A stretch of DNA of 64,000 bases from Blasia pusilla (Eukaryota): assembly GCA_050084515.1 (NCBI GenBank), contig CM114271.1, positions 3,224,001 through 3,288,000 on the forward strand, read 5' to 3'. Positions 22,361 through 43,920 of the stretch are shown piece after piece. How positions within the stretch are numbered: position 1 is the stretch's first letter; each line of letters opens with the position of its first letter. The notes beneath the pieces are model-generated. The model searched no databases and was not told the DNA's origin. It worked only from the letters and a program-made list of their open reading frames with translations. A program made the position numbers and the translations under genes.

Positions 22361-24289
22361 AGTTTTCAACCTTAAAAAATAATAATGGATTTGGAGTAGT
22401 AAGATTTAGAGCAAGATACCAGAGGTTTCTAAGTGTTGCATAACTCCTTGCCAAGAGAAAAATTTCTTGTAGGCTCCCAAAACTCCAATTATGGAATATG
22501 AAGTTATGAAATTAATTGGGCGTACGGCCAAAATTTCCGTAAAGACCAACTGAATCAACATGTTTCAACCTTCAAAATGACATTCTATTGGATGAATATT
22601 TACAAGTGATGGATGGAAAAAATATGGCTGAAAGATAATGATTGAGGATATTAATGAATAAAGATTGTAGAGCATGTGTTAGCGTCTTCATTGAAAATGT
22701 CTCAAATTTTAGAATCATATGCTTTCCAATGAAGATCTAGAAGGGATGGATGCAAATAATGAAGCTTGGAGGCTTGATTTGAGGATTTTTTTTTTATCAA
22801 GTGGAGGTTGGAGAGAAGATAGTGTCAACTATAGGATAGAAATGGGATGAAATTTCTCTTCAATAAAATGTTTTTTTAGTAGAATCGCTCTCATACATTG
22901 ATTTCCAATTTTTTTTTCTCAAAAATGAAATGATTGAGCCTACCTTATGAAGACAAGGTTCTAAGGTATATTTTTCATAGGATGTTATATAGTCTTTAAG
23001 AAATGGTATAATGAATCTTGTTGGTTTTGAGTTGTGATTCTATAGAGATTTCATAGAGTTTATGGTAGTCCTTTCAAATACTATTATTATTATGTATTCT
23101 TGAATCTTGATGTCTTACTAGCCTAAAAGGCCTTAAGTAAGTATGGTACATATAAAAGGATTGCCTTTCAAATTAAAATACTCTTAGAATTGCCTTGAGA
23201 ACGTATTGAGAAATACGCCCCTACAACGATGCCGTCTAAGAAAGAATTGGCCTCATAGTAGTAGGTAGTTTTCCCTCTTTTCTTCATGTTTGTATGATAC
23301 AACTTTGTGCTCAATAGCTAAAAATGATATGAACGACACCCCTAGGGTAAAAAATAAAAAAAGTTATGCAGATGATTCATCGCCATCTACTTAGTTTCTT
23401 CTTGCTTCTATAAACTGTGAGCTTTTCACCTAATCCTTCTAAAGTTCTCCATGCTTATAATTGAAGACGTTTATAAAAGGCATAGATATTTTCTCCCTTC
23501 ATATCAAACTTAATAATGTATCAAGATGTTAATGCTCAAACATCTAATTTGCAAAGAATTCTCAACATCTACTTTGTCATTCCTTGTTCATGTTTAGAGC
23601 TACTAAAAGTAGCCAAATCATAAACATAACCCATCACACAACTAACTCAAAAACATGGAGAGGTGAATGATCAAGCATCTACTTCAGAAGGAATTCTCAA
23701 CCGTATCGTGCGCATACACATTGCTACACAACATACATTGTTGTCGATAAGCATACACACAAACACACACAATCCCATGCTAACTCATGGCATCCAAACA
23801 ACGAGACAAGAAGTACCAAAATATCTCCAATAAATCAAGTAGATCTCACATCACGTCACATCTCTCTCAACAACTCACACCAAGCTCTCTATGGTGTGCA
23901 CTCTCTCTCATGTCAATCCAAACCTACTCTCCTAAAGGGAGGCTTGGGTTACACACACAAGGCAAGGAGGACCATAGCTCTGCCGCCTCCTGCCAAGAGG
24001 TTCAACAAAGAGAGAATGACCTCTCAAGCTCTCTCTCGTTGAGGTATACCCCCTTCCCTCTCCCAAGCTCTCTCCTCGGTAACCTATGCTCGTAGGTCAC
24101 CTCCTTGGCTCTTGACCTATTGTAGCGGGTCAAGGGCCACCTCCACAAGTGGAAAGTCAACTCTACTAAATATGGAAACTTATCCAAAATAGTAAGTTTC
24201 TCTATATAACTCCAAATGAGCCGAAACACGGACTCATCTTTAGGATGTCCCGGGTGAATCCTCACCGCGACCTCCTATCAGGTGATATA

Positions 24290-24615
24290 TGTGGAAAACT
24301 GCTAAACAAAACATAACTGGTGGAAAAATGACTCTCACACACACACACACACACACACACAATCATGGAGGACGAAATTTGCAATGAGAGAATGAGTGGA
24401 GGCTGGTCCTCTCCTCAATTATATAGGATATGTACAAGCAACCCTAACCCTACCCTTAACCATAGTCTCGAGTTAGACTAATTGTGATTAACTAACCCTA
24501 CTTAAGAGAATCGTGCTTAAGTGATTAACCAAGATTAAGCTTCCCTACTTTGTGTGAGTACCAAATGTAGGAGTTCATATGTCTCATAAGCTTGACTGTA
24601 ACTCAATCTTCAATA
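24290..24615 (-). repeat. copia 3' LTR
   Basis: Direct repeat of 27349-27662, preceded on the minus strand by PPT AGCTTGAGGGGGAG (24616-24629). Confidence 0.9.
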
Positions 24616-24683
24616 CTCCCCCTCAAGCTCATATTGATATCTCTAACGTCTAAATCCTTTCTAAAAATCTCAAACTTATCTCT

Positions 24684-25251
24684 AGACACGTCTTTTAGGA
24701 TAGATCTGTCAGATCTAGCAGAGCGCCTTCGTGAGTAGTGGAGGATAGGCTCAATAGGTGGAGGATGACTTACTGAGGCCCCGGGAAACGTGAGAGCAAA
24801 TTTCCCCATTGTTTCGGCTCATTTAGAGCCATATTGAGGAACTTATTATTTTAGGTAAGTACTATTTTTAGTATATGATCAACTTTTATTTTTGGTAAGT
24901 GGCCCTTGACCTCCATCAGGTCAAGAGCCAAGGAGGTGACTTTGGAGCGTAGGTTACCATAGAGAGAGCTTGGGAGAGGGGAGGAGTATACCTAAAGGAG
25001 AGAGAGCTTGAGGGCTCATTCTCTCTTTGTTGAACCTCTTGGCATAAGGCGGCGGAGCTATGGTCCCTTGCCTTGTGAGTGTAACCCAAGCCTCTCATTA
25101 GGAGAGTGGGTTTGGTTTGACATGAGAGAGTGTGCACACCTTTGAGAGTTATGGTGTGAGATGGTGTAGAGAGAGATTGGATCTTACTTTACAAAGAGAG
25201 AATGAGCCCTCAAGCTCTCTCTCCCTGAGGCATACCCCTCCCCTCTCCCAA
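24684..25251 (+). mobile_element. Family-2 A-repeat (element 5' end) inside the copia, ending in a fold-back inversion
   Basis: Matches 63031-63556 on +. 25191-25251 is the near reverse complement of 24970-25030. Confidence 0.8.
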
Positions 25252-27336
25252 CTTGGATGCTCTTCTATCTTGCTTTGGAAAAGGAAATCTAGCTTGTTTT
25301 CCAAATTGGCAAGCAGGAAATACCTCTAACGTAGCATGACTGGCTAATTTAGGGAGTCCTATTACTATATTAGATGATGAAAAAGTATATAATCTTTGAA
25401 GATTGATATGTCCAATTCTTTTATGCCACACATTTAGATTTGTGACTTGTTGGCCGATTTGACCATACATTGCTATTTGAATCTTTGGCACAGAAATATC
25501 TAATTTGAACATTCTGCCAGATCTAGTTCCTTTGGCTATTGTAGTCTGGTCACCCATTGATTCAATGAAACAACCATCTGCGTTAGACTTCACTTGATAA
25601 GCCTGTTCTATTATCTGTGCTATAGATATCAGATTTCTTGCAATAGTAGGAACATAGAGAACATTTCCAAGAGCACAAAGACCATATGATGCTATTGGAA
25701 CTTTACAGGTATGCGAGATATGATGTTGAGTGTCATCTCATGTGAGCACAATTGCAGGATCTTTCACCGGCTCCAAACTATTGAACCATTTAGCTTGTGA
25801 GATCATGTGATTTGATGCATCAAAGTCAATGTACCAATCTGTTGTCAAGTCTTTCTTCACCATTGCTCCCATATGATGAGTCATGACGAAGAGATGCTAT
25901 GTTTGTGAATGTTGTTGTTTTTGGTACTACTCTTGGTAGTGTTGCTCCACATAGTTTTATTGTTGTAAGGATCCTATTCTCATATCTTCCTTCTTCTTGA
26001 AACAAAACTTTGCATATTGACCCTTTATCCCACAGTAATTGCAAGATCCAGAGACCCTTTGTTGCTGACCTCGATCCCAACGATTTCCACCATCACCACC
26101 TTGTGATTGTGTCTGGTACTGGTTCGTAGTTGATTGAGTGACATTATATTGAGTGCCTCTTCCTCCATATGCTTCATATCCACCACGACCACGGAAGTTT
26201 TTGCCATGACCCCTGCCTCTGTTTGATCCATAATCTGCAAATAACGCACTCTCTTGTAGATTAGACGAGCTACCGCTGCCTACTAGGTGCATCTCTTCAC
26301 TGATCAATAGAGGAACTAACTCTTGAAAGGTTGGATATTTCTCTCTCACAGAGATAGAGGTCTCAAAGGACTTGTAATGCTTTGGAAGGCCTTGAAGAGT
26401 GAATAAAATCAGATCATCATATTCTACTGTCACTCCAATGCTATTCAACTAATCAACAATATGTCTGATACTCAAAATATAATCATTGATGCTCTACGAT
26501 CTTTTCCTCACTACGTTTAATTGTTGTTTCAATTGAAGCTTTCTGGCCTTTGTAAATGTCTAGAATAACTTTTCCAATGCATCCCAGGACTCCTTCGGAG
26601 TATCAACATCTTGGATGTGACCAATCATTGGCGAATTGATCGTTATTGCAATGTCGTGGATTACTTGCCTTACACGTTTGTTCCAAGTACGAACATTCAA
26701 GTCTGTTGAGTCACCTTCTAGCTTGGCCTCATCACCTATGACAAGCTCCCATAGTTCTTGACCCATGAGAAATTATTTCATGCAAAACTTCTAGATATTG
26801 TAATTCTGCTTGTCTAGCTTCTCGCCTGTGATTGATGTTGAGGAATACTCCATGATAAACGATTTCACTCACAAAAACATAATTTCAGGCTTTCTACTGC
26901 TCCAATTGAAGCATAGACTACTCTTACACAGAAATTGACCTAAAATTTGCCAAAATTGATCAAATGTAAGAAAGAACTAGTCGAAATTGGCTTGTAGAGA
27001 GCAAAGTACACAACTTTTCTTCACTAATTGCACTTTCCTACACGTCAGAGTGTCAGAATCGAGCAATTTTGGGTGCGTTGGAAAGCTCTCAATGAGCTCT
27101 ATAAGACGTCTAGAACAACCTTTGACATCATTCTAGCCAAAGCGGACCCAGATGGCTGAATCAACCGGGAAAGCCCTAAAAAACGCCTCCAAAGTTTTAT
27201 CACCGTCAAAGCTCCACTTGAAATCTGCACCCACTAAGTTATGAATAAAATTTCCTTCTCCCAAACTGAAATTTTGCCTTCTCTTGCCTCTCTTCTCTAT
27301 TCAAACACCAAGAATTTCAAGTGATGTTCTCCTCCC

Positions 27337-27348
27337 GCTGTGATACCA
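27337..27348 (-). promoter_or_regulatory. copia primer-binding site (tRNA-iMet)
   Basis: TGGTATCACAGC directly after the 5' LTR; one mismatch to TGGTATCAGAGC. Confidence 0.85.
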
Positions 27349-27662
27349 TGTGGAAAATTGCTAAACAAGCATAAGTGGTGGAAAACGGCTATCACACACA
27401 CACACACCACCATAGAGAACGAAATTTGTAATGAGATAATGAGTGGATTCTGGTCCTCAACTCAATTATATAGGATATGTACAAGCAACCCTAACCCCAC
27501 ACTTAACCATAGTCTCGAGTTAGACTAGTTATGATTAACTAACCATAGTTAAGATAATCGTGTTTAACTCACTAACCAAGATTAACCTTCCCTACTTCGT
27601 GTGAGTACCAAATGTAATAGTTCAGATGTCTTATGAGCTTGACTATAACTCAATCTTCGATA
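27349..27662 (-). repeat. copia 5' LTR
   Basis: Direct repeat of 24290-24615, followed by the PBS on the minus strand. Confidence 0.9.
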
Positions 27663-30600
27663 ATATATTGTGTGGTACTCGCTCCACCTAAGGATGTCTG
27701 TATCCGGAATGGACAACGCTCCACATGGGCCCTCGTCAAGCCCAAACCTCTGAATGCCGCTTTCCCCAACATGAAGGGGTTGCGCTCCTGAATCCAACCA
27801 GATGCATTGTGGACTAAAAGCTCTATCTCTTGGACTCACCAACTGGAAGACCTCTCCCCGGTTATCCAACAAAATAACACAAGGAGAAGCCATGGCAAGC
27901 TCTATCGCGGGTCTAGTGGGCATCTCCGCCATCCTAGCAATTGCAACCTGCCACGAATGTGACGTGGATGGCCCGAGCATCAGCTCCAAGGGCAAGTCCA
28001 TCACCTCCTCTACAATCACCTTTGAATGTGATGCATGAACTCCAACTCCAAGATCACATAGCGTAGCAGCCAACCGGAAAACCTCGGCGGGGGTACTTTC
28101 CAACGTCATAACATCGAAAGCAGAAAATAAAGGAGCGCGGTACACAATGGTGGACGCCCCCAACAACATACTTGACACATTCCCCTCTTGAGCATCAACA
28201 ATAGGAGTTGTGGCACTCTCTTCTCCCATCGCCAACTCTCCGAGAACTCTTATCAGAACCCGTCGATGGGGTCCTCATTGCCTCGAACAACGTGAAAGAC
28301 TAATGAAGACTGGTCTGTTTCTTGGCTTCCCCCCGCTGTGGATCCAAATCTGCGACTGCTCCACGCGTAACAACTCCAAGGGCCTCCATCTGGGCAACCC
28401 CGCACATCCAACCAGGATCCTCCATATCTATGGCGGCTCCATAAGACATCGATGCCACGGATCCGGCATCGGGTAACCTCAATGCCATAGTAGCAATCTG
28501 CTGCTGTAGCTGATGTATCTGAGCAGCCATCCCAGCCTTACGCTTGGCATCTCCCTCAACGCGTCTAGGTGGGGGAACTTTACCTCCTCCATGAACAACT
28601 CCATCATCCCCTTGGGCGAATCCATCTTCTCGTCTCCCAATGGGACCACCTGGTGCACGGCCTCTAGGCCCACCTAGACCGGCAACTCGCTATGGTGCCC
28701 TCTCTGGCCCTCGATCCAGACGTAACTTATGGTGCAAGCACAAATACTTGGCGTGTGTGTGACCTCTGAAATTAGTCACATTGATAATCTCTTGGTGCAG
28801 CCCCATCTCCTCCTCCATGTTACGGTAACCGACCATGACCCTGACGAAAGCAATGGTGTTGATGATGGGCTCCACCACATGACCAAAACGTAATCGTAGA
28901 CGGTTGCTGCTGAGCCGCATATGAAGGCGCAGGTCTCTGTGGCACGGCCTCCCGATATCCTCCCTTAGCTTGTGGTGTCACAGACCTATCTCGGAATCCA
29001 CGTTGTTGCATTGATGGTGCAGAAAATCGTGACTGCTCTCCTCCGCCATGTTACGCTCAATATTCTCGGCCGTCCTTAAAACATCTCTCAATATAGGGGA
29101 GGTGTTCATAAGAAGTATCCCCTCCTGCACATGTATCCGCAAGGTCCGGTCCAACATCGCGTACCATGACTAGATAGCATGAGCCTCTGTCATCCCCTGA
29201 GTGACGTTAATCAACCGGCGCAAGCGGGTGTAGGCCTCATGCAAACTCTCACCCGGGAGCCTCTGGAAGTCGTGGATGCTCCGCAACTTCTCCGTCCGTA
29301 CCCCCTGGTAGCTCGCCCTCAACTCAGCAAAGAACTCAACCACGAGGTTGAACCTCGGATGAACTCGACTGGACAATGCAACTGCTCCAGTGTGAGTCAC
29401 CCCTCCTACAACATCACTGATGGAGGAACCCTCTCCTAAATCCTCCTCCTTATCAAGAAACGGATCAGTCCATGCCACATAGGGTGGGTCATAGTAGAAT
29501 CGCCATTCCTCAATCTCTTGGGCATATCTGTGGGGGAACTCATGATAATCATCCATGGGTGCCCTCTCTAAATGTTGGAATGTACCGTTCCATGTTGTAA
29601 ACAGGTTGAACTCTCTAGAGTTCCTAGCCCGTTGTGAGTCACACCAACTACTAAAATCCGCAATGAAGTCCTGTAGCTCTATGATGCCTACAGCACCCTA
29701 AGCGGTCATCTACCCCGATCGTCCATCTCGTACGCCCAACTGGTAGGACCACTCAATGTGTGCGGTGGATCACTAGCACACTCTTCTATACTCTCCCCCT
29801 CGTTTGAAGACAACACAAAAGGAGACCGAGGTGGTCTCTCATGTGGAGACTCTGGAAACTTCACACCACTCCGGGCAAACCCTCTAGAGCTACTCTTAGG
29901 TCCACCACCTCGCCTCTCAAAGTCCCAAAAGGACACCGTGATGATCCTCATGCCCCTCTCACACGATCACTTTCAATCTCACGAGTAATCACTCAATCAC
30001 TCAATCCAACAATCGGCTCTCTATCTACACTCTCTCACTTAGACGTGTCTTGTGCGGCAACATGCGGCGTGGTGTGGCAAATCATCGACTGCCCTATCAT
30101 CTCATCGGCAAGACACACCCTCAACTTTGGACATCCCACACATGTCTATGTCCCCTAACCCATACATCAATGATGCTCTCACCATCAGCCCGAAACCCAA
30201 TATCCCCAAATAACTTCCCAATACCCGGAAATCCCTAACGCGTGTAGGGCAAAAGACCAGAATGGGTAATCTGAATGTCTGTGTCGCTCCTCACCAATTG
30301 CAAAACCTCGACCCCAACTCGGTCGTGAAAACAACTCCTCCAAATAGTATGTCGTACTCCCCTGGTACTGACGGTGCTCAAATCTCCTCAATGTGCGGTG
30401 CGGGTCCAGTGGTACGGTACGGCAGTGGCGGCACGGAACGGCACGGCACTCGAGAATGGGGTGCGGCATTGAGTGGCATACCCTCCCCAACAACAAAACA
30501 CACACTCTGCTCCCAAGTGATGGTGCAGCTCCGCGATCAAAAAGTGCGGTGCGGCCACGAGCGGCACCGCGCAGCAATTGGCGACGTGTTGCGGCTACGA

Positions 30601-33600
30601 GCGTCACAGCACGTTATTGGATCGTCGCCGAGTGGCTACAAATCACAACGCAGCAAAGCGGAAAAGAATGGAGACCCCATCGACCCAAAATATCACCTGT
30701 CATTCCTGAGCGGTCAATCCTCAGTCGATCGATGTCCAAACGGCGACTGAAAAATCGGTGGCGGAGCTAATGACAAAAATCAACGGCCGTCAATTACTCA
30801 ACGGAAACTGACAGCTGCAGAACACCGACGGATGTCGGTCGGACGGACCCAGTTGGTAGCAGCGGACGGCGTAGGTGCGTAGCCGGATGGAGCGACGCAC
30901 AGTAGGACAGCGACTCAACCCGCGGCAGACGAGAGGGAGACTTCAGGTTTCGATGGGGTCCCGGCAACGTGACGCCGACAGTCGCGTAGGGCGCGTAAGG
31001 CACATAGGGTCGGCTGGTAGAGCCACCGAAGAAAGACCGCGACGGATGGACGGCACGTGGCACAGAAAGCGGCGAACTATGGCTAGCGGCAACTCCCCCT
31101 AGCATACGACAACGGAGAGGGTCGCAGACCGGGTGTAAGGCGTCGGCTTGACGCAGCCGGTCGCGAGCCGGATCACAGAGACGGCAACTACGTCGAGCGA
31201 CGGCAGCAGGTCAGGGTTGGCCGAAGGCAGGAGCTCCAGACAGTCACGACAAGAACACCAGTTGACGCACATCAATTTTCTGGCACATACGGCGGGCCCG
31301 CGATAGTAGTTGGGTACCGCCGCTACCGCGGTAGTAGCCACGGGACGGCGGCTGGTCGCGACGCACACGACGTGCGAGCAAAGTGGGCGGCTTCGTAGCA
31401 AGGTCGACCAGGAGGCACGGAGCAGGTGGCGACTCCGGCTAGCTCCCCCACGGCTGTGGCAACCTAGCGAGGCTACGGCAGCTTATGAATCCGTGACAGC
31501 AGGCCAGGCCACGGCGGACCGGGCTGAAAGGCGCGTCTGCGGGAGCAGTAGCGATCGGAACGCGTCGGAGAGGCTGACGGCAGAGCCGGGCGGATGTCGT
31601 CCCTCCCCCAAAATTTTGTCTTCTTACTAAAATACCCCCCGGAAAAACTGGGTCGAAACTAAAATTGCTTAACTTGACTCCCCCCCCTCTGACAGATTTA
31701 CAAATTGGATGATTCTCCGCAATCAGTGGGTCAACTCTCCTATTTTATTTTTCACTCAACTTCTACCTCTGAAAACATTTGTCCCTTGTCCTACCCACTG
31801 AGATGACACATAACTTTTTTTCTACCCATCACCAAGGATTTTGGAAATTTCACTCATACCTTGGGACGGTGGCCATGGCAGCCCAACAAAAACTATTGTA
31901 ACTTCACGCTCAGCTCATGAAATTGCGCACCATTTCTTCTCCATGTGCACAACTTCTTGATCTATGACCTCGTTGAAATGGTTTCTCCATTCGACCTTCC
32001 AATAAAAACTGGCAGGAACTGTCGTGCAACTCAACATCTCTTCTCCTACACAAAATTTGGCAGCGCTTCCGTGTTGATTTCTCCCAGCGCAAATCGAAAA
32101 CTTGTGAAAACATAAACCAGCAAGCTACACGATGCTCTCGAGAGCACCGGCATGGGGCAACCCGCCCCCATACTCAATCCCTATCAAAAATTGGGCAGCG
32201 CTTCCGCGCGCCACTCTTCCACACAAAAAATTGGCAACCGCAAAGCACAACCAAAGCCACTCTTGCTCCGGTGAGCACTCCCATGAGTGGCTGAATGGGG
32301 AATACGGTCCCCAACCTCCAACAACAGCGAGTGACCAGCGAGCTCCTCCATTGAACTCTCTCACTCTCTCATTCTCTCTTTGTAAATCAAGTAGATCTCA
32401 CATCACATCACATCTCTCTCAACATCTCACACCACTCTCTCTCATGTCAAACCAAACCCACTCTCCTAATGAGAGGCTTGGGTTACACACACAAGGCAAG
32501 GAGGACCATAGCTCCGCCGCCTCATGCCAAGAGGTTCAAGAAAGAGAGAATGACCTCTCAAAGCTCTCTCTCGTTGAGGTATACCCCCTTCCCTCTCCCA
32601 AGCTCTCTCCTCAGTAACCTATGCTCGCAGGTCACCTCCTTGGCTCTTGACCTGTTGTAGCGGGTCAAGGGCCATTTCCCAAAGTGGAAATTCAACTCTA
32701 CTAAACATGGAAACTTACCCAACATAGTAAGTTTCTCTATATGACTCCAAATGAGCCGAAAGAAAGGGGAAACCTGCTCTCTCAGGTTTTCCGAGACCTC
32801 AGCAGGTCATTCTCGACCTCCTCATCCTGTCCTCCTCTACTCGCAAAGGCGCTCTACCAGATCTCTCTGATCTATCCTAAAAATTTGTGACAACCATCAC
32901 CTTCGCCTCTTCTTCCTCGTATGAATTCTAACCTTCTCGCTTTTCCCTTCTCCATTCTTGTAGATGCAAAGGATCGAAATGAAAAAATTCGCAAGCATAC
33001 ATTGACATTGCACAACCACCTCAATAAAAGGAGAACAAGATGTAATTTCTAAAGGAAATTATACGTATGAAAGGGCTCATAATAAACCCACAAATGTGTA
33101 CGCTTGTGTGTAAGTCCAAAGAGCCATTTATTTTTATACTTATGTTGAATTCATCAAGTTTTCACAAGATAGTTATAAGATACAAAGAATCTAGGGGTTT
33201 ATTTGCAAGTGCTTTGGAAGTGTTTTACAAAGATTTTGTAACTTTGTGATTGCGCTCTAGAAAAGTCAATGTATTTTGCCACCTAGAACTCATAAACTAT
33301 CAAAGCAATTATATGGAAATCATCCAATAAATGTATGGAATTCTCTAATAAGAGGGGTCTAAACCAATGAGAATATAAAAACTTGAAGTTTCTAAAGGAT
33401 GCATGATAGTTGTTCATTTATAAAGAGCCATAAAAGAGAGAATCTTAGAAAGTGGAAAATCTACACCTAGCCTTATCAAAAATAACCTTGCGCCTATTCA
33501 TCCTCAGGCTAGAGGCACAAGAGTTAGACGTGGATTATGATTCAAGAGGGGCTCATACAAAACAAGTCATCTCTAAGGGATTTCGGACCTAAGACCTACA

Positions 33601-34093
33601 CCTCCGCAATGAGCACTCCATCCACTCCCTGAGTCTCCAACGTGATATGAACGGTATTAATAAAATTCTAAATCTGTTATCCAAAATAGAACATATGGCT
33701 TCAGGATTTTGACCTCGGGGTTAACTAACCCAAGGATGAATAGGCCCAAGGAAAAATAATCTTGATCACCATATGGAATTTCTACATATGAATGTAACTT
33801 GAAGTCTTTTTTTTTATATATAAATGGTTCTAAACTAATGCATTGGGTCTAACAAATATTTCCTTGAAGGCTTAATGGGATTTCATAGGTGGTCTTGCAA
33901 ACTCTGTAATTCACAAAAAACTGATTTTAAAAGATTAGGTCGCTCTTTCCTTCTTCATCTTTCCTAATCATGGATTGCTTAAAGATTAGAAGAACAATTA
34001 AATGGCTTTATAAAAGTACATTTGACTTGCTCATGATTGTACACACAGTTTCTCTAAGTCCAAAAACTTAAGTATATGAGAATAGTAGCTGGC

Positions 34094-34461
34094 TGTCATG
34101 ACCATACGAATTATGTCGTAGAGTATAGCGTGCTAATAGAAGCCATACCTTATGTAGGGCCATAGTGTCTAGGTAGAGATGCGGTTTCATACATAGGGTT
34201 GGGGGTTACTCAGTTGAGGGTGACTTTTCCAATAGGGCCCGCTCTTAGGTTGGAGGATATAGTGTGGAGTGCACTCAAAGAACAGTTAGTTCTTTGAGTT
34301 GAGCCTGTTGCGTTGGAAGTTAGCCTTGGTAGTGAGTAGAGCTCTTGGCTATGGTGGTTCTCGTAAGCTTCGACCTGGATTCTCCCATCGTGGAGTGGGT
34401 TTGGCTCGACAGGATGTGATTCTATACGTGTTTTATGACAGTAGGTCTTTCATGGATTTCA
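34094..34461 (+). repeat. Split repeat A1 (368 bp)
   Basis: Colinear with 42986-43353; about 17 mismatches by manual count. Confidence 0.95.
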
Positions 34462-35020
34462 CTCAAAGAACTAGAGTAGATCGATGGTAGCTTCGATTGT
34501 GGATCAGTAGGATATGGTTAGGGCTGATTGTGTACTCAGACGTGGATGTTCGTGGCTTGTGGCCTATGTTGGAGTTGGGAATCTGGTGCATGGTTGGTTG
34601 GTAAAGAATTGCCTTGCTAGAGCTTTCCAACGCGCTTTAGATCACTGGATTTCGTTAAGGGAGTTGGAAGTTGGAGAGCTTGGAGTGAGGAAGCTCTGTT
34701 GAAGTTCATCCAGATCGGGTGAGAGGTTCTTGTTGCTACTTGTATTGTGATCTCATATGAAGCTATATGCTTGAGTGTTTGGAGCATTGTGTATTTCTGC
34801 GTGCATGAATCTGGGTGGAAGCGCTGTCGGATTTGCGATTCCGGAGGTGTATGGACAACAAGTTTGTCTGATTTTAAGCTCGAAGTACAGAGCTCGGTTG
34901 TAGCTGATTTTTTGTGGAGAGATAGCTATGGTGGTCAATTGAATTCTGGTTGAAATAGATTCAATTTTGGTTGAGAATTTGTGGAGTAATTTCTGATCAA
35001 AATTTTGCGGACTAGCTCAA

Positions 35021-35080
35021 GGTCTGGCTATGGTGGACAGCAGATCGGAGGGTCTGGCTATGGTGGACAGCAGATCAGAG
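35021..35080 (+). repeat. 2 x 30 bp tandem repeat in the element's 5' leader
   Basis: GGTCTGGCTATGGTGGACAGCAGATC(G/A)GAG twice. Confidence 0.9.
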
Positions 35081-35807
35081 AGGCTTCGAGGCATCTCGTG
35101 GTAGCTCAGTGCAAGTGGGCGTGAGAGGCGGAGTAAGGATCAAGGATTAAGCAAGAAAGCTTGCTTGCTTGGGCATGAGGCAGGTTTTGCAGGATTTGTG
35201 ATTTGAGTGTTGCATAACTGGTCACCCATCTTTGGGCTATTCTGCCTGGAAGACGCTTAACCGCTGAGTTCTTAACTATGCTAGTGTACACACTGGTGTA
35301 GCTCATTTGGTGTTGTTCGGAGATGTGTTAGGCGCTTTATGCATCTCAGGTTTTTGGTTGATGGATCTCTAGCGCATAGTACGGTGTAGCCTCTCCATGC
35401 AGTTGATATTTTCAGGTGCTGCGAGTCCGACTAGCACGTCATCGACCCGCGGCGGAGTAGTTATTGCGTTAGAATTTTGTAGTGGGTTCTGTGGATTTAA
35501 GGGGCGCCACGTTTGGTGGATTGTGTTACCTTGATTTCCATTTGTGATTAGAGGGTTTTCGTTGGACTTCCTGTGTTTGGATCCCCTCCATCCTTGCTTC
35601 TTGCTTGCGCGCCCATTGTTAGGGTTGACGTTGATTTCCATAGTAGTGTTACTCCTGTGTGCTACCGGTAGTGAGGCTGGAGTGATGACCAGTAGACCGT
35701 GGGAGCTTTCTTGTGGTGATGACACGTTAGGTTGCCTACACCCATAGCTAATAGAGCTAGAATAGTACAGCGACATCGACGTCACTTGGCTACTTAGTGG
35801 TGGTAAT

Positions 35808-38300
35808 TTGGTGGTGGTGCGGCATCGGCGTTGGTCATCACGGAGCTGTCTGGTGGCCTGGTTGGGCCTGGTTGGGGACCGTGATGCGGACAGTGGTGGT
35901 TTTACACGGAGTGGATTGAGGTATCTACTACCTTTTCCACTTCTGACGGTTGATGAAGAGAAGGACGAGGGTGTTCCAAACACCGAGTCTTCTACGTTGG
36001 TATCGAGTGTTGCAGCTCCATTGATTTGGGACATGGACGAGATATATGGGGCCATGAAGGGCCCACGATGATACTCGGATGCAGTGGACACCATTGAGTT
36101 GGAGGACTTCATGCAGGAGTTTGATACGTGATGTGATATGCAGCTGTTGCGGAACGCCACGTTGTTTACACCCTTCTTGGCTAGGAAGGGGTTGTTTCAA
36201 CACTTGGAGGGACCACCCATGGACGATTACCATGAGTTTAGGAAGGACCATGTTGTTGAGATTGAGGCGTGGAGACAATATTGGTCTCCAGGCTATGTGT
36301 CTATCACCCATGGTGGTATTGGTAGTAGTGCTCCTACTATGCCAGCCAGCCCGACGTTGAGTGGTACGAGTACGAGCAGGAGTGGGAGTACCAGTGGAGA
36401 TACCGGTGGGGGTACTAGTGGAGGTACTAGTGCCCCACCATCGTTCAGCCTGCTTGTAGAGTTCTTCAAGAGGTTGAAGAAGAACTATCAGGGAGTGAAG
36501 ACAGAGAAGTTGAGGAGTCTTCAAGAATTTGAGCGAAAGATTGGTAAGAGTCTTCGTGAGGCATACACTTGTATGCGTCGCTTGATTTCACTTACCCAAG
36601 GTGTGACTAAAGCTCAAGAAGTCAAGTTTTGGTATGGGATCTTGGACAGAGAGTTGCGCCGCAGGGTATATGATCTACTCTTATGAGTGATGATTCACCC
36701 ACATTGACCCATGTGTTTGCTCTATCTGAGAAGATTGAGCTTAATATGGTAAAGGGGAGAGTGGTGACATCCGCATTCAGTAGGGATACAACTACTACTT
36801 CTCGTGTTCAGCAGCCCATCTCACATTCTCGTAGTAGTGGTGGTGGTAGTAGTAGTGGGAGTCGTGGGGGTTACACACGACCTCAGTCAGGTCCTAGAGG
36901 GACACTTGCGTAGAGACCATTGCCTTCATTTGCTGCCCCGAGCAAGGACACTCATGTTGGACATGTGGAGCTGATCATGTTAGGAGTTTTTGTCCCCAAG
37001 AGGATGGGAGACGGACTTTGGAGGATGGGCCTCAATCGGCCCCAACTCAGAGTGATCATTGCGGGAGACCAGGTCATCCTCGAGAGCGTTGCTTTGATCT
37101 TCATCCAGAGTTGAGATCAGGCCGCAGCCGTGGTGGAGTAGCTCCGAGAGGCCGAGGTGGTAGAGGTGGTAGAGGTGGACCATTGGTTGGAGAGCCTACG
37201 GTGGCTATCCCTACCACTACGACAGAGTCAGCTATGGCTGCCAGGATTGAGCGATTGGGAGCGGTTGGCTTCTATTGTTGGTATCCAAAGATAGATCAGG
37301 TTCGGGAGCAGCGGCTTCCACCTCTTATGGAGGGATGATCTCTCTTATATGGCGAGTGCAAAGACCGAGGTTGAGGCATCGCAGCGATTTGAGAGGAGCC
37401 ACTCGAGCGTTAGAGCCACCTGGTGCTACTGTGGAGTTGGACCCACAGAGGGGTGAGGTTGGGAGGCAGGCTAGGCTTCCCCAATCATACTTGTTGTCTG
37501 AGGTGCTTAGGACTCCATCCATGGTTCCTACGCAGCCTATTGAGCCGACAGTGGGGACCGAGGCATCTACATCGCGTGTAGTAGACACGGATGCAAAGAT
37601 CAATGCAAAGATTGTGCGGATGGCAACTTTAGTGTTGGGATCCCCATTGTTTTCGGCCACGAAGCTGATGGCTTGAAGAGTTGACTTAGCTCGTGTATTT
37701 CAGCTAGCAGCCACGTTGTGTGAACGTGGGGATGTTACTGCTATACGTGCTGAGGTGGATGAGGGTGTTGCGGTGGAGCGACCCTCTATGTCAGGTGTAG
37801 CATTGAGTACTAGTGCTACTTGGCAGGCAACAGCGGCGAAGATGGATGCATTACCAGCCCGGCCAGCCATTGATCGTGAGAGGCTTACACCTGGTGTATG
37901 TATGTTGGACAACCAGAGTGGGATATTCCGATTGGTGAGTCCTACAGGACATGTGTATAGACCAGATAGAGTCTTGTTAGACTCTAGTGCCTAACCTTTG
38001 ATGTTGGGAAAGGCGGCATGTATTGGTTTGGGTATTCGGAGGTCAGAGCTTGAGCCTTGCCCATTCCAGATTCAAACATCACTTGGAGGAGCCAATGATA
38101 TGTCTCAATTCATGACACGGGAGAAGTTTTCTGTACAGTTGAGACCAGATCATGTGACTGATAGCTCCCGATTGGGAGTACCTACAGTGGTCACATCAGC
38201 CGAGTCATATGATGTACTAGTTTGAGGAGCATTATTGAACCCGATGGGTTTTCAGATGGATTACTGGACTGAGACAACGTCTTATAGACCTGGTAGGCAA
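35808..38300 (+). pseudogene. gag (two knuckle remnants) and aspartic protease of family 1, interrupted
   Basis: Gag-like ORF 36138-36686, knuckles CWTCGADH....C (~36955) and xDHCGRPGHPRERC (~37050), protease VLLDSSA*PLMLG (~37970-38010) and SYDVLV*G. Confidence 0.8.
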
Positions 38301-38699
38301 TCCGGGGATGGACGTATGAGCCAAGTTTATGTGAGATTTGTTTATGGGGCTCGACCAGGAGGGTCTTCCCCAACAGCGTTAGCATCTGTGGCTGGTTTTA
38401 GTGGAGTAGTCACTTGGCCAGGACAATTTTTGGAGGGTAATGTTTCCGCTATGGATTCTCTTGTGCATGAGGAGGTAGAGGAGGTCCCTATTTTTGTAGC
38501 AGTGGCATCCTCATCATTGGATGTGCCACTTTGGAGTTCAGGCGGTGCACTACGGCAGGAGGCTGATCGCCTAGTGCAGGAGGCTTGGTGTGAGGTTGTT
38601 ATATCTCACGAGGAAGAGGAGGCCCCACGGCGGACTCCTACTTCTGGTCCAGTTGGGTTATCTCCTTTGGATACTACACCCATTGTATGGCAGTATCCG

Positions 38700-39640
38700 C
38701 CGAAGGGCATTTGTGTGTTAGATCTCTTTGGTGGGATTAGCATTGGTTTGGCTCTAGTGTTGCAGGCCGGTATTCCTGTGCGGAGATACGTGTATGTGGA
38801 GCAAGATGAGACGGCCCAGAGAGTCTCATCCCGACATATTGGTCAGTTGATGCGGAGATATCCTGAGTTGTTGCCGCCATCAGCTATTCGTGGGTACTAG
38901 CGTGGTTTGCCGTCACACATTGCATTGTTGCGGGCGCAAGACCTTGAGAGGGTCGGTCCTGTGGATTTGGTGATTGCTGGATGGCCATGTCAGGGTCATA
39001 TACGTGTTGGTTGTGGTAAGGGATTACACGACCCTAGGTCTTGATTGTTTTGGGAGATGTTACGGGTGTTACAACATCTTCAGGTTCATCAGGCACGTGT
39101 TCCAACTTACATTCTGGGTGACACTCGGACCCAGATGATGGTGAGTGTTCATGAGGTGCGGTCTTGGATTGGACCAGAGGTGTTGTTGGATGCAGTGCGA
39201 GTTGGCTCACGTGCACATCATCCACGCTTGTGGTGGACAAACTTGTTTCCTAGGGAGGTTCTACGTCGAGCATATGATGTAGTGCAGCGGGATCCTTGCC
39301 TTACAGTGGATAGTATCTTGGATAGTGGGCGACTTTCTCAGGTGGTGAGGGTTATTGATCGGTCACCCATGGCAATGGTGAACCGTGTGGGCCAGCCTAG
39401 GATGGCACTACCCACATTTGTGAGTTTTCCCTCGTCACATGCCTACAAGGAAGGTGGTCTCGGGCTTGTATGGGATTCTCATGTGCGACAGTTGGTGGAG
39501 CCTAACGCTGATGAGAGAGAGCGTGCGATGGGATTTGCTACTGGTGAGACAGTGGTTGCTTCCATTTCTGAAGCTTCACGACGTCATGTGTTGGGTCAGG
39601 CCATGGACCTGAATTGTTTGACTTGGATTTTGAGTCTTGG
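38700..39640 (+). pseudogene. C5 DNA-cytosine methyltransferase domain inside pol
   Basis: One frame read through stops at 38898 and 39042: motif I VLDLFGGI (38715), motif II YVYVE, motif IV DLVIAGWPCQG (PCQ at 38985-38993), motif V DPRS*LFWE, motif VIII LDAVRVGSRAHHPRLWWTN, motif IX ERERAMGF, motif X LGQAMD (39591). Motif VI (ENV) is absent. Confidence 0.9.
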
Positions 39641-39980
39641 TATGGACGAGCAGCGTCGACTTTGGACTATGTCCATGGGTCTTCCACCCCTTGTGATGAG
39701 CTCGATGGCTACCGGGACGGTAGAGGCATCGGCTGGGGGCAAGGATAGTAGTATTTTGCATCCTTGGAGTAAATGGGATGTAATGGCTAGGCATGTGGAG
39801 TTGGTTGCTCATGCTGGTGGAGGAGTTATTTGCTCAGATGATGGTGTAGCTAAGGGTGTACCATCTTGTGAGGGGATTGCGTAGTAGCCAATGGCATCGT
39901 CCTCTCCCTCTAGTGTGCCAGTGGAGGAGACTTAGGAGCCATTACTTGGGCCCAAGCTTACGGGAGGTGAGAAACGACGC

Positions 39981-41000
39981 TTGACACAATTCCTACGTGC
40001 TTATAGGAGTTGTTTTGCCTTGAGCATGAAGGAGTTGGGTGCTTTGGTTGGACCCGGTATACGGATTGATTTGGCTAGTGATATGCCAATCTTTCGTCGT
40101 CCCTACCGATATAGTGATATGGAGAGGGACCTGATTCAGACTAGGACGTTGGACCTTTTGGAGGCTGGATTAGTGGAGTTGTCGCATGGAGAATATGCAC
40201 CTACCGAGTTTCAGAGAGTGATGGACAGCATCCTAGCAGGGTTGGATTTTGTTTGGTGTTACATTGATGATATCTTGGTGTTCAGTAACATGGTGGAGGA
40301 GCATCATATACATTTGCAGATTGTGTTCGAGCGGTTGAAAGCTCATGGTCTACGTTTGCATCCAGGAAAGTGTAAGTTCTTCCATGAGGATGTTGAGTAC
40401 TTGGGTCATGTGATCTATCCAGGTGGTTTGGGAGTTCAGCAAGCAAAGGTGGAGGCTATTGCACTTATTCCGCGTCTGGTAGATGTGAGTAGAGTTTGGG
40501 AATTCATGGGATTGGATTACTACTATCGGAGGTATGTGAAGGGATTTAGTGCTATGGCAAAGCCTTTGAACCAATTGCTAAAATCATATCAAGAGTGGCA
40601 CTCGGGAGATGATCAGGAGAGAGATTTTGTGGAGCTCAAGGCCTAGTTAGTGGCGGCGCCTATCTTGAGGAGACCTATCAAAGGGCGCCCATTTCAGTTA
40701 TACACCGATTGGAGTAGGTTGGGACTTGGAGCGGTGTTGACACAACATGATGATGAGCACATGGAGTTTGTGGTGGCCTATGCAAGTCGTTCGATTAATA
40801 CAACGGAGTTGTGCTACAGTTCATATGAGGGAGAGTGCTTGGCAGTAGTGTGGGTTGTGGCACACTTTAGGTGTTACTTGTTTGGCGCACAGTTTACCCT
40901 TGTTACTGATCACCAGCCGCTCAAGTGGTTGATGGAGTTTGACAAGCTTACAGGGAAGCTTGCACGGTGGGCTCTTATCTTACAGGAGTATGACTTCTAG
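39981..41000 (+). pseudogene. Reverse transcriptase (internally deleted) and RNase H
   Basis: RRPYRYS, PTEFQRVMD, CYIDDILVFS, KCKF, YLGH; RNase H LYTDWS, YSSYEGECLAVVW, TDHQPLKWL. Confidence 0.93.
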
Positions 41001-42704
41001 GTGATACATAGACCTGGAGTTGCCAACCTTGATGTTGATGGGTTGAGTAGGAACCCATGTACTAGCCAAGAGGATGCAACTGGGGCTAGATGGCATGGCG
41101 AGGTTGATGAGGAGATGGTGCCAGGTTGGCATGCATCCGCCTTTTTATGTTGGTTAGGGGTGGACTCTAGTATGGAGGACCACATGACATCTTACTCTAG
41201 TCAGAGGGTAGATGGCCAGCCTTCAGATCCTAAGGTTGGAGATGGTGGTACGGATCAGCGTGATATTCATGATGATGCATTGGTGTTGGAGTTCCTACGG
41301 ACCAGTAGGGTGCCAGGCATAGTGAGTGCCAAGGAGCGAGACCGTGTTCTTCAACATGCTAAGAGGTATCGATTGGAGGGAACACATATTCTCCGTGTGT
41401 GGGAGGATGGTAGAGTACGAGTAGTGCCGCATTTGGCTCGGAGAGAGCGCATTGTGCGACATGCCTATGAGGAGTTAGGACATTTTGGGGTAAAGCGTAC
41501 GTATAGCTTACTCCTTGGTCAGTATTGGTGGCGTGGCATGCATACTCAGGTGCAGCACTTGGTGTCATGTTGTATGGTTTGTGACCGGGTGAGGGCATCA
41601 TTCAATGCTCCTACACCACAGTTACACCCCTTGCCTATTATGGGGTTGGGTTACCGTTGGAGTGTGGACTTTGCGGGACCGTTACCGTTGAATGTACGAC
41701 ATCATCGATATGTGTTGGTGATGGTGGAGCACTTCTCCAAGTGGATTGAGTCGGTAGCATTACCTGACAAGGCAAGTGAGGAAACGGCGTATGCCTTTCT
41801 TGATAGAGTGCTTAGTCATTTTGGTGCACCAGCTGAAGTGCTGACCAACCAGGATACAGAGTTTCAGGGTGAGTTTCAGGTCTTGTGTGACAAGGCGTTG
41901 ATTGATCATCGGACCACGTCTCGAGATCATCCAGAGGCGGATGGTTCGGTTGAGCGTGTGTTTCAGAAGGTGAAGAGGGCATTGTGCAAGTATGGCCTAC
42001 AGAAGGGGCATCTTGGAGATTGGGATATTCAGTTGCCATGGTTAGCCATGGGGTATAGGTTCAGTCGCCAAGCATCCTTGGCTTTCTTCTCACCTTATTT
42101 TCTCTTATACGGCCGAGATCCAGACTTGCCAGAGGAAATTCGTCAAGAGTCTAGTGAGGTGGTGAACCTTGATAACCCAGAGATGTGGATGAGAGTGTGT
42201 TCTCAGCGGGCAGAGCTCTTTCAGAGAGTTATGCCAACAGCCTTTGAGAACCTTGCCATGGCTCAACACAGGGAAACGTTGCGGTATGCAACCATTCGGG
42301 GTGGAGGTTATCGACCATCGATTCGTAGGTTCCATGTGGGGGACTATGTCTATGTGCAGAAGATTGCATCGACAACGTTGGATGTGACGGCAGGTCGCAC
42401 TATTTTACGAGTGCGCGAGGTGTTAGCTTATGGAGTTCTCATGTTGGAGGGTTGTGATGGAGTTTTTTGGAAGGACCATGTGCGTAATTGTACGCCATAT
42501 CATCTTCCAAATGTGGATGGTACTCTTGAACCAAGCTTAGCCATGATACGTGCTAGCTTGAGGTGCATGTTGTGTGGATCTACTGGTAACGTAGCCCGTA
42601 TGTTGGTGTGTGATCGGTGTTCTAGGGATTGGCACATGATGTGTTTGACTCCACGTATGGATGTTGTTCCTACTGGAAGGTGGGTTTGTCCTCGAAGTAC
42701 TTAG
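41001..42704 (+). pseudogene. DDE integrase with a C-terminal PHD finger
   Basis: HHCC-type GHFG...CMVC. Core SVDFAGP / VLTNQ (D>N) / SVER. C-terminus CMLC...MLVCDRC...WHMMCLTP....P.GRWVCPR at 42564-42701; the last Cys is lost. Confidence 0.92.
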
Positions 42705-42876
42705 GAGAGGTAGATGACTTGATCTTTGCATGATATGGATTACATATAGGCAACTAACGATGGGGCAACCTAGCACCCGACCTTCTGATTCATGCACCCA
42801 AGAAGGTGTATAGCATGTAGTAGATGTATAGGGCTACCTGGGAGTTAAAGGGACCTAACCGCCAGTTAGAGGCGCA

Positions 42877-42983
42877 AGTTGTGGTACACTTGTGTTTGTG
42901 GATGCTCTCGTCTATGTTATGTATGTATGTGAGTATGGTATGTCAGCGATGTATGTTGTATGACGATGTGGATTCGCACGATA
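42877..42983 (+). repeat. Split repeat B1 (107 bp)
   Basis: Colinear with 43353-43459. Confidence 0.95.
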
Positions 42984-42985
42984 GC

Positions 42986-43353
42986 TTTCATGACCATACG
43001 GATTATGTCGTAGAGTATAGAGTGCTAGTAGAGGCCATACCTAATGTAGGGCCATAGTGGCTAGGAAGAGATGCGGTTTCATACATAGGGTTGGGGGTTA
43101 CTCACTTGAGGGTGACTTTTCCAATAGGGCCCGCTCTTAGGTTGGAGGATATAGTGTGGAGTGCACTCAAAGAACAGTTAGTTCTTTGAGTTGAGCCTGT
43201 TGCGTTGGGAGTTAGCCTTGGTAGTGAGTAGAGCTCTTGGCTATGGTGGTTCCCGCAAGTTTCGACCTGGATTCTCCCATTGTGGAGTGGGTTTGGCTCG
43301 ATTGCATGTGATTCTATACGTGTTTTATGACAGTAGGTCTTTCATGGATTTCA
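42986..43353 (+). repeat. Split repeat A2
   Basis: Copy of 34094-34461. Confidence 0.95.
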
Positions 43354-43459
43354 GTTGTGGTACACTTTTATTTGTGGATGCTCTCGTCTATGTTATGTAT
43401 GTATGTGAGTATGGTATGTTATCGATGTATGTTGTATGACGATGTGGATTCGCACGACA
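43353..43459 (+). repeat. Split repeat B2 (element 3' end)
   Basis: Copy of 42877-42983; ends CGCACGACA. Confidence 0.95.
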
Positions 43460-43920
43460 TGGGCAAGTTGATCTAAAATTTTCTCAATCCTATCCCCGGC
43501 ACCTATTCATCCTTGAGTTAGATCAAGAGGGTCATAGGGTGAGTTAGACAAGGAGGAGTACTAAAAAAAACCTTGAGGTGTGTGGCCAAACTTGAGCTTA
43601 GGACCAACTAATCTTCAAGGAGCCTATTTCCCGCTATGATAAAATATCCTACATGCTAGGAGGGAGAACAACAAATAATTTATTCTTTTATCCATTTGCA
43701 AACCCATAGTAAGTTACCTTAACCACAATAAGAAAATCCAAGGATGAATAGACTCAAACATCCTATCTTATGATGTGGATAGGTAGGCCCTTGAAAGTTT
43801 CATCATAAGTGTAGCAGAATGTTCATATTTCAAATATTAAGCCTTCTCACACATACATATCATATCCATAAGGTTTCTTGAATTCTTGCAAGGGAAAAGT
43901 GGGCATGACATTATATCTTA

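Follow-up and report, generated by a model that had tools for sequence, protein, structure and literature searches.

In the accepted view, long terminal repeat (LTR) retrotransposons and retroviruses integrate by the ends of linear cDNA, and circular forms of this DNA count as dead-end by-products. DIRS, Ngaro, and PAT elements are not known to create a target-site duplication (TSD) on insertion. According to the passages on repeat structure in PMC7192593 and PMC4157794, DIRS, PAT, Ngaro, and VIPER elements carry split repeats in the order A1-B1-A2-B2, with the joined termini lying internally, and a circular intermediate has been proposed for them. DIRS-type repeats have also been noted on a gypsy-type element, KnitGypsy-Dnmt3 of Klebsormidium nitens (de Mendoza et al. 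2018, PMC5890265, legend to Fig. 4c). Here, we describe a 9,366-bp gypsy-type element at positions 34094 to 43459 (forward strand) of a 64,000-nucleotide stretch of Blasia pusilla DNA (GCA_050084515.1, contig CM114271.1, positions 3,224,001 to 3,288,000), referred to as the window. The A-coding-B-A-B layout of the KnitGypsy-Dnmt3 type is present in the window and in relatives of the element. Both elements are described as combining a gypsy-type Pol with a DNMT3-like domain. With the DIRS, PAT, Ngaro, and VIPER elements, the element shares split direct repeats with the joined termini inside. It differs from them in having a DDE integrase, no tyrosine recombinase, TG...CA termini, and 4-bp TSDs. 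The TG...CA termini and the short TSD are shared with canonical Ty3/gypsy elements, whereas two full-length identical terminal LTRs are not.

The element is arranged in the order A1-coding-B1-GC-A2-GT-B2. A1 and A2 are 95.4% identical over 370 nt, B1 and B2 are 96.2% identical over 105 nt, and the window copy has no B repeat upstream of A1. The canonical layout of an LTR element is therefore absent: the left end consists of A only, the right end of A-B, and B1 is internal. With a polypurine tract (PPT) before B1 and a primer-binding site (PBS) after A1, reverse transcription should give an LTR composed of B-NN-A. Linear cDNA bearing such LTRs would read B-A-coding-B-A, a form seen in no genomic copy among those examined. 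The stretch bounded by the two priming sites is B-NN-A, which does not coincide with the repeats at the ends of an integrated copy, and given where these sites lie, the B1/A2 junction is not the product of joining cDNA ends. Judged from sequence, this junction is inherited as an internal segment of the LTR that reverse transcription produces, with both integration termini standing back to back in it, and the genomic copies appear to be circular permutations of the DNA product of reverse transcription. We infer a circle, or a concatemer, and an integrase cut at the B/A site.

The B1/A2 junction had been picked out in a first-pass annotation of the window as a built-in right-end/left-end junction resembling that of a circle. 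The string reported there, CACGATAGCTTTCATG (CACGATA-GC-TTTCATG), was confirmed at 42977 to 42992, exactly at the B1/A2 boundary. The outer termini also read as given, with TGTCATG at 34094 and CACGACA ending at 43459. The motif alone is not rare, since with 2 mismatches allowed 27 of 100 shuffled versions of the window contained at least one match. What gives it weight is its place at a repeat boundary and its recurrence in relatives. These were collected by an integrase scan of metagenome contigs, which yielded 80 loci with 55 to 87% protein identity. Distinct insertions were told apart by shared flanks. When A and B were mapped on these loci, the integrase was followed by B-A-B at 14 distinct sites, the window among them, and the full A-int-B-A-B arrangement was found in 5 of the 12 loci having enough flank. 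The layout is thus not a tandem or solo-LTR insertion unique to this locus. CA-NN-TG with a spacer of 2 bp was conserved in 24 of 26 rows, corresponding to 15 (with the window counted) of 16 distinct insertions; the sole exception is a single insertion (L053 and L054) with a deletion at the B/A site. The exact string CACGACANNTGTCATG was present at eight loci. The commonest form of the junction, CACGACAGCTGTCATG, was found exactly in L006, L039, and L062; its central 10 bp are perfectly palindromic, with one asymmetric pair farther out. Three more distant families keep the B/A site approximately 105 nt past a G-rich tract, namely L043 (70% integrase identity, spacer GT, full B-A-B), L050 (58% integrase identity, spacer GT), and L055 (57% integrase identity, spacer GC). 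The contigs of L050, L055, and L063 stop too soon downstream or upstream to reveal a second B. A spacer of variable length had been named as an observation that would speak against the junction, and the length was 2 bp in the copies as well as in the three distant families. The built-in junction with its 2-bp spacer therefore stands. The further suggestion of a circle with a single B-A junction does not hold for this copy, which would need two such junctions (a 2-LTR circle). A circle with one B-A junction would yield a shorter A-coding-B form, which also occurs.

Counted by insertion, the spacer was GC in 7 cases, AC in 6, and AT in 2. An origin of the spacer from flanking DNA, as might be read from the GC at 34092 to 34093 left of A1, was rejected because spacer and flank differ in L003, L015, L066, and L075; the spacer was unlike its own flank in 4 of the 5 elements checked. 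Spacer type agreed between nearest neighbors in 2 of 15 cases, a number reached by 4904 of 5000 shuffles, and the tree is star-like. The spacers GC, AC, AT, and GT differ by transitions only, and their bases stand in CAG/CTG contexts, so that the variants are read as decay and not as spacers formed de novo. The neighboring CG of CACGACA was altered in 5 of 15 copies. Spacer variation would then represent decay of an unconstrained, methylated spacer. In insertion sequences of the IS3, IS30, and IS256 types, a DDE enzyme acts on abutted ends separated by a short spacer, with a circular intermediate. Those are DNA transposons whose spacer derives from the donor flank, whereas the spacer here is mostly not that of its own flank and varies by transitions only.

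Target duplications were assessed in the 11 elements having both ends by comparing the 4 bases outside TGTCATG with those outside ...ACA. The 4-bp TSD suggested in the first-pass annotation was borne out, with an exact match in 8 elements (L003, L015, L066, L075, L011, L019, L040, and L056), agreement at 3 of 4 positions in the window (TGGC/TGGG) and in L051, and at 2 of 4 in L067. The 4-bp duplications displayed no clear consensus. B was not found in front of A at any of the 17 distinct left ends, and no right end in the mapped relatives was an A end. A DDE integrase, TG...CA ends, and duplications of 4 bp are what ordinary integrase chemistry at the A start and the B end would lead one to expect. 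Together with the intact-looking domain make-up of that integrase, these ends and duplications would fit a cut after CA on both strands.

Tf1 and sushi gypsy elements are self-primed: their primer site adjoins the LTR and pairs with the 5' end of the element's own RNA. Similarly, the putative PBS of this element abuts A1 and complements a stretch of 10 to 17 nt near the presumed RNA 5' end and not a tRNA. In the window, the complement is 13 nt long, lies 174 nt before the A end, and was matched by 0 of 300 shuffles; it forms the 3' arm (34287 to 34299) of a hairpin. A complement of at least 10 nt, 167 to 178 nt before the A end, was found in 7 of 10 cases and was equaled by 0 to 3 of 300 shuffles. 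The same geometry recurs with a different 13-mer in a second family of the window, which amounts to covariation between families. In relatives, TTTTCA followed by CTCAAAGAAC is conserved directly 3' of A1. As the PBS does not start with TGG, it is not a site for the 3' end of a tRNA, and no tRNA-type site (TGG...) was seen abutting A1 or B when the sequences following them were inspected by eye. One candidate, TGGTAGCTTCGA, located 24 nt past A1, was set aside because it occurs in the window copy only. A TATA-like box approximately 30 nt upstream of the primer-like stretch is a predicted promoter. If the RNA begins near 34284, the computed fold pairs the primer-like stretch with the PBS; taken as a whole, the leader folds with ordinary energy (z of -1.05 and -0.88).

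The PPT is decayed to AGAGGCGCAAG in the window. In almost every one of 55 rows from relatives, CTAGGGGGGCGAG runs straight into TTGTGG, and other copies from the source organism read AAGGGGCGAG at this position (loose read end at 42851). The tract is situated before B and not before A2. No purine-rich stretch stands before A2, and what follows B does not resemble a primer site.

The following series of events would account for this arrangement. Transcription would start inside A1 and end inside A2. Self-primed reverse transcription of the Tf1 kind, together with plus-strand priming at the PPT, would give a linear LTR'-coding-LTR' molecule in which LTR' is B-NN-A. Its ends would then be joined, either in a 2-LTR circle or in a head-to-tail concatemer, creating the A/B junction TTTCA-GT-TGTGG. 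Integrase would assemble on CACGACA-NN-TGTCATG in one LTR' and cut each strand 3' of its CA, the two cuts being 2 bp apart and leaving 2-nt 5' overhangs as after normal end processing. Insertion of the opened molecule with a 4-bp stagger would result in A-coding-B-A-B. A 1-LTR circle opened at its B/A site, or linear cDNA cut at two sites, would result in A-coding-B, which has no 3' repeat and so lacks what the next round needs. A-coding-B-A-B is exactly what joined cDNA ends and reopening at the B/A site of one LTR would leave. The genomic copies could not be derived from the predicted linear cDNA without end joining and opening at the internal palindrome. We consider this mechanism as a whole, with end-joined cDNA reopened by integrase at the internal B/A site, to be probable by a modest degree.

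The second junction, A2/B2, reads TTTCA-GT-TGTGG (or AT in place of GT), i.e., the A end followed by the GT-TG that comes after the PPT, and fits a junction made by joining cDNA ends. Its spacer was 2 bp (GT or AT) in 12 of 14 distinct insertions. One insertion had 1 extra base, and L002/L003 carried approximately 20 extra bp that include CGAG, the last bases of the PPT. Beyond CA..TG, the A2/B2 junction is not palindromic. One DNA contig from another copy joined an A repeat lacking 53 bp to the start of B (34409 to 42879), weak evidence given a side of 25 nt.

Transcription was evaluated in one stranded RNA run, of which approximately 6% was read, mapped on a dead copy of a very high-copy family. 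First mates fell nearly all on the minus strand, indicating sense RNA. The depth was 78 to 124 over B1 and A2 and 4.4 in the last bin, which covers the A2 end, B2, and flank; as half of this bin is flank, the depth over the A2 end and B2 is approximately 9. Low B2 depth fits transcripts that end inside A2 and carry no A/B junction. Among the read joints listed, none linked the B2 end to the A1 start and no loose ends occurred at the termini; such reads would also fit B1/A2 and are uninformative. Joining RNA reads spanned 41223 to 42232 (16 reads, with 9 other letters between) and 42828 to 42926 (10 reads), which indicates transcribed deleted variants, one without much of the integrase and one without the PPT and the start of B1.

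The best-surviving alternative is that the ends are restored in the manner of DIRS elements. In that case the RNA would not reach the outermost ends, and B1/A2 would serve only as a template or splint on which reverse transcriptase rebuilds linear cDNA with a free A start and B end; integrase would use these free ends as it usually does, and no internal cut would be made. Split direct repeats are explained in this way for tyrosine-recombinase elements in the relevant text of PMC7192593 (the A1-B1-A2-B2 definition is that in PMC4157794), and the tenth or so of the RNA depth that does cross A2-end/B2 counts in its favor. The positions of the priming sites speak against it: with the PPT before B1 and the primer site after A1, the canonical ends are the B start and the A end and not the A start and the B end, and the regions before A2 and after B offer neither a purine-rich tract nor a primer-like stretch. 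B2 is also poorly covered by RNA, and A2/B2 shows the insertions that are expected of end joining. We regard end restoration as unlikely.

The shorter A-coding-B form bears on a second alternative, in which linear cDNA alone is the substrate. Here, integrase would pair the A start of the left LTR' with the B end of the right LTR', making A-coding-B the primary product and B-A-B a secondary one. Approximately 22 distinct A-coding-B insertions, with a unique flank after B, were counted versus 14 B-A-B sites, and of the six having both ends, four displayed an exact 4-bp TSD (L011, L019, L040, and L056), one a match at 3 of 4 positions, and one at 2 of 4. These copies have no terminal repeats of any kind. 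Without a 3' repeat, they would give no terminally redundant RNA, and the family would not be sustained. In B-A-B copies, moreover, A1/A2 and B1/B2 divergence is of the same order, as expected of one event, and we know of no secondary event that adds A-B with a clean CA-RT-TG junction. This route appears rather improbable. Under the end-joining mechanism, A-coding-B would be expected from an opened 1-LTR circle or from cutting both sites of one linear cDNA.

It is very improbable that the palindrome serves a tyrosine recombinase as its core site, whether the enzyme is encoded by the element or acts in trans, as in DIRS, Ngaro, and PAT. The repeat layout is typical of such elements (PMC5890265, legend to Fig. 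4c), but none of the 31 forward-strand open reading frames (ORFs) of at least 50 amino acids matched a tyrosine recombinase, the element encodes a DDE integrase, and its ends are TG...CA flanked by 4-bp duplications. A one-off local rearrangement, such as a tandem LTR, solo-LTR, or nested insertion, would suit the single copy of the family in the window and has a negligible probability, as the same layout and 2-bp spacer recur at 13 other sites and in a family of 70% identity, and the family is very high-copy in DNA runs.

Several points weigh against end joining followed by internal cleavage. No circle, concatemer, or cleavage was observed in the data examined. The junction in the window differs from the common form by 2 mismatches, every copy examined is degenerate, and the relatives are metagenome contigs of a repeat family, among which chimeric contigs are possible. 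Three of the 10 copies inspected have no primer complement, though these are decayed. A-coding-B could equally arise from later recombination between B1 and B2 or from an assembler skipping the B-A loop, and in either case these insertions would be lost as support. Sets of contigs with shared flanks agree in form (three short, six long, none mixed), which speaks against random assembly error without constituting proof. Roughly one-tenth of the neighboring RNA depth does cover A2-end/B2, and the RNA evidence is a single run. Read mapping is loose in so abundant a family, and whether a read is placed in A1 or in A2, or in B1 or in B2, is arbitrary. RNA molecules pile up at 34255 and at 43147, the same position in A, approximately 32 nt upstream of the start deduced from the TATA-like box and the primer-like stretch, which also calls for caution in the comparison with Tf1 and sushi elements. 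An RNA starting at 34255 would include the whole hairpin. The pile-up may represent the true start or clipping against a divergent reference.

As described in the parts of PMC1180852 and PMC1905944 that treat this reaction, the integrases of foamy virus and HIV-1, respectively, cut the palindromic LTR-LTR junction of 2-LTR circles, and the cut after CA on both strands leaves processed ends fit for integration. By analogy, the proposed chemistry is plausible. In retroviruses, it is the joining of the cDNA ends that forms the palindrome, and this route is accessory or debated. Here, in contrast, the palindrome would lie inside the LTR, approximately 105 bp from its left edge, with a 2-bp spacer, and its regular use is implied by the permuted form of the genomic copies. 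The literature searched yielded no description of an element with an integrase that integrates within its own LTR. The main text and one supplementary text file of PMC5890265 are silent on a palindrome, a circle, and target sites. In that text, the junction palindrome, the 4-bp TSD, the positions of the priming sites, the A-coding-B form, and the mechanism are thus not described. The DIRS-like repeat layout on a gypsy element has been known since 2018, and the mechanism was found nowhere in print.

If the mechanism holds, integrase would here, in a natural element, act mainly by cleaving abutted ends. The mechanism would also provide a reading of the DIRS-like repeats left unexplained on a gypsy element in 2018, and a simple shared logic for the split direct repeats of tyrosine-recombinase elements. 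A wider claim, that a widespread green-lineage clade of gypsy elements with a PHD-bearing integrase, often carrying DNMT3, obligatorily integrates end-joined cDNA (2-LTR circles) by cutting the intra-LTR palindrome and ignoring the cDNA termini, is put forward tentatively, as a possibility that we place a shade below probable. That wider claim would make these elements a natural case of the long-abandoned idea of the circle as an integration precursor, and DIRS-like split direct repeats could then be regarded as the footprint of a circle integrated at an intra-LTR site, whichever enzyme is used. In practical terms, LTR finders will misannotate such elements.

The features of the element are listed in Table 1.

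Table 1. Features of the gypsy-type element and its immediate flanks (positions in the window)
Feature	Position	Strand	Remarks
Left TSD copy, TGGC	34090..34093	+	Matches right flank TGGG at 3 of 4 positions
Repeat A1	34094..34461	+	Begins with left terminus TGTCATG, ends ...GGATTTCA
TATA-like box, GATATAG	34256..34262	+	TATAAAG in relatives; from alignment of 13 A1 copies
Hairpin, CACTCAAAGAAC / loop / TAGTTCTTTGAGT	34272..34299	+	Kept in relatives
Putative PBS of the self-priming type, ACTCAAAGAACTA	34461..34473	+	Abuts A1 end
gag-like ORFs	36132..37338	+	CX2CX3HX4C zinc-knuckle-like motifs in translation; no Pfam match
ORF ending LLDSSA	37677..37994	+	Protease-like active-site motif, by eye; no Pfam match
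DNMT3-like cytosine methyltransferase region	38226..39884	+	Split in two ORFs; motifs DLFGGIS and ERERAMGF...LGQAMD, by eye
Reverse transcriptase and RNase H	39936..41000	+	In-frame stops between ORFs; Pfam RVT_1 3.5e-17, RT_RNaseH 2.4e-36
Integrase	41001..42704	+	H2C2 zinc domain, DDE core, C-terminal PHD finger (Pfam)
Degenerate PPT, AGAGGCGCAA, plus GT before B	42868..42879	+	Intact form in relatives
Repeat B1	42880..42983	+	Begins TGTGGTAC, ends CACGATA
B1/A2 junction	42977..42992	+	B1 end, GC spacer (42984-42985), A2 start; degenerate copy of the CACGACA-GC-TGTCATG palindrome
Repeat A2	42986..43353	+	Direct repeat of A1
A2/B2 junction, CA-GT-TG	43352..43357	+	Join expected from right cDNA end (CA) to left (GT-TG)
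Repeat B2	43356..43459	+	Ends in right terminus CACGACA
Right TSD copy, TGGG	43460..43463	+	

All reading frames of the window copy contain stops, and the copy is therefore dead. From 39936 to 42704, the RVT_1, RT_RNaseH, Integrase_H2C2, and rve domains follow one another in gypsy order. The integrase was recognized by Integrase_H2C2 (2.4e-13), rve (4.1e-12), and PHD (2.7e-08), and comparison with protein clusters returned generic gypsy integrase clusters only. The PHD finger lies at the end of the integrase (42564 to 42701), where chromoviruses have a chromodomain, and may steer target choice. Pfam yielded no match for the DNMT3-like pieces of the window. The assignment stems from a homologous 467-amino-acid ORF in L075, which matched DNMT3A (E value of 4e-08); its Pfam DNA_methylase score (E value of 0.0019) is under the cutoff of that model. 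In this L075 ORF (6895 to 8298), PWQ stands at the position of the catalytic PC of DNMT3A, the catalytic cysteine having been lost in a decayed copy.

In DNA runs, the depth of the family (33946 to 43633), summed over contigs, was in the thousands, versus 1.5 to 4.5 in the unique flanks. Such extreme abundance was seen in DNA runs from the source organism as well as from two related labels, and small shares of the words of this family were found in air metagenomes.

A second, older related element of another family occupies 23704 to 32761 on the minus strand. It has A'-like repeats at 32761 to 32384 and 24226 to 23831, followed by a B'-like end at 23830 to 23704 (...GCGCACGATA), and its own 13-nt primer-site complement. 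Its gag-like ORF (29643 to 29113) shares 43.7% identity with that of the main element. Neither a reverse transcriptase nor an integrase was found in it by tblastn, and no B' copy or TGTCATG start precedes the second A'.

In L078 (3358 to 3876) and L080 (1409 to 1927), a complete A2 is followed not by B2 but by the first 182 nt of A in inverted orientation; this could have come about by nested inverted insertion or inverted duplication, or it could be an assembly chimera. In the window, the untranslated leader between A1 and gag contains a tandem pair of 30-bp units (35021 to 35080) that are 96.7% identical. An 800-bp internal duplication in L066 (6476 to 7282 and 10286 to 11076; 76.7% identity) lengthened that copy to 11 kb.

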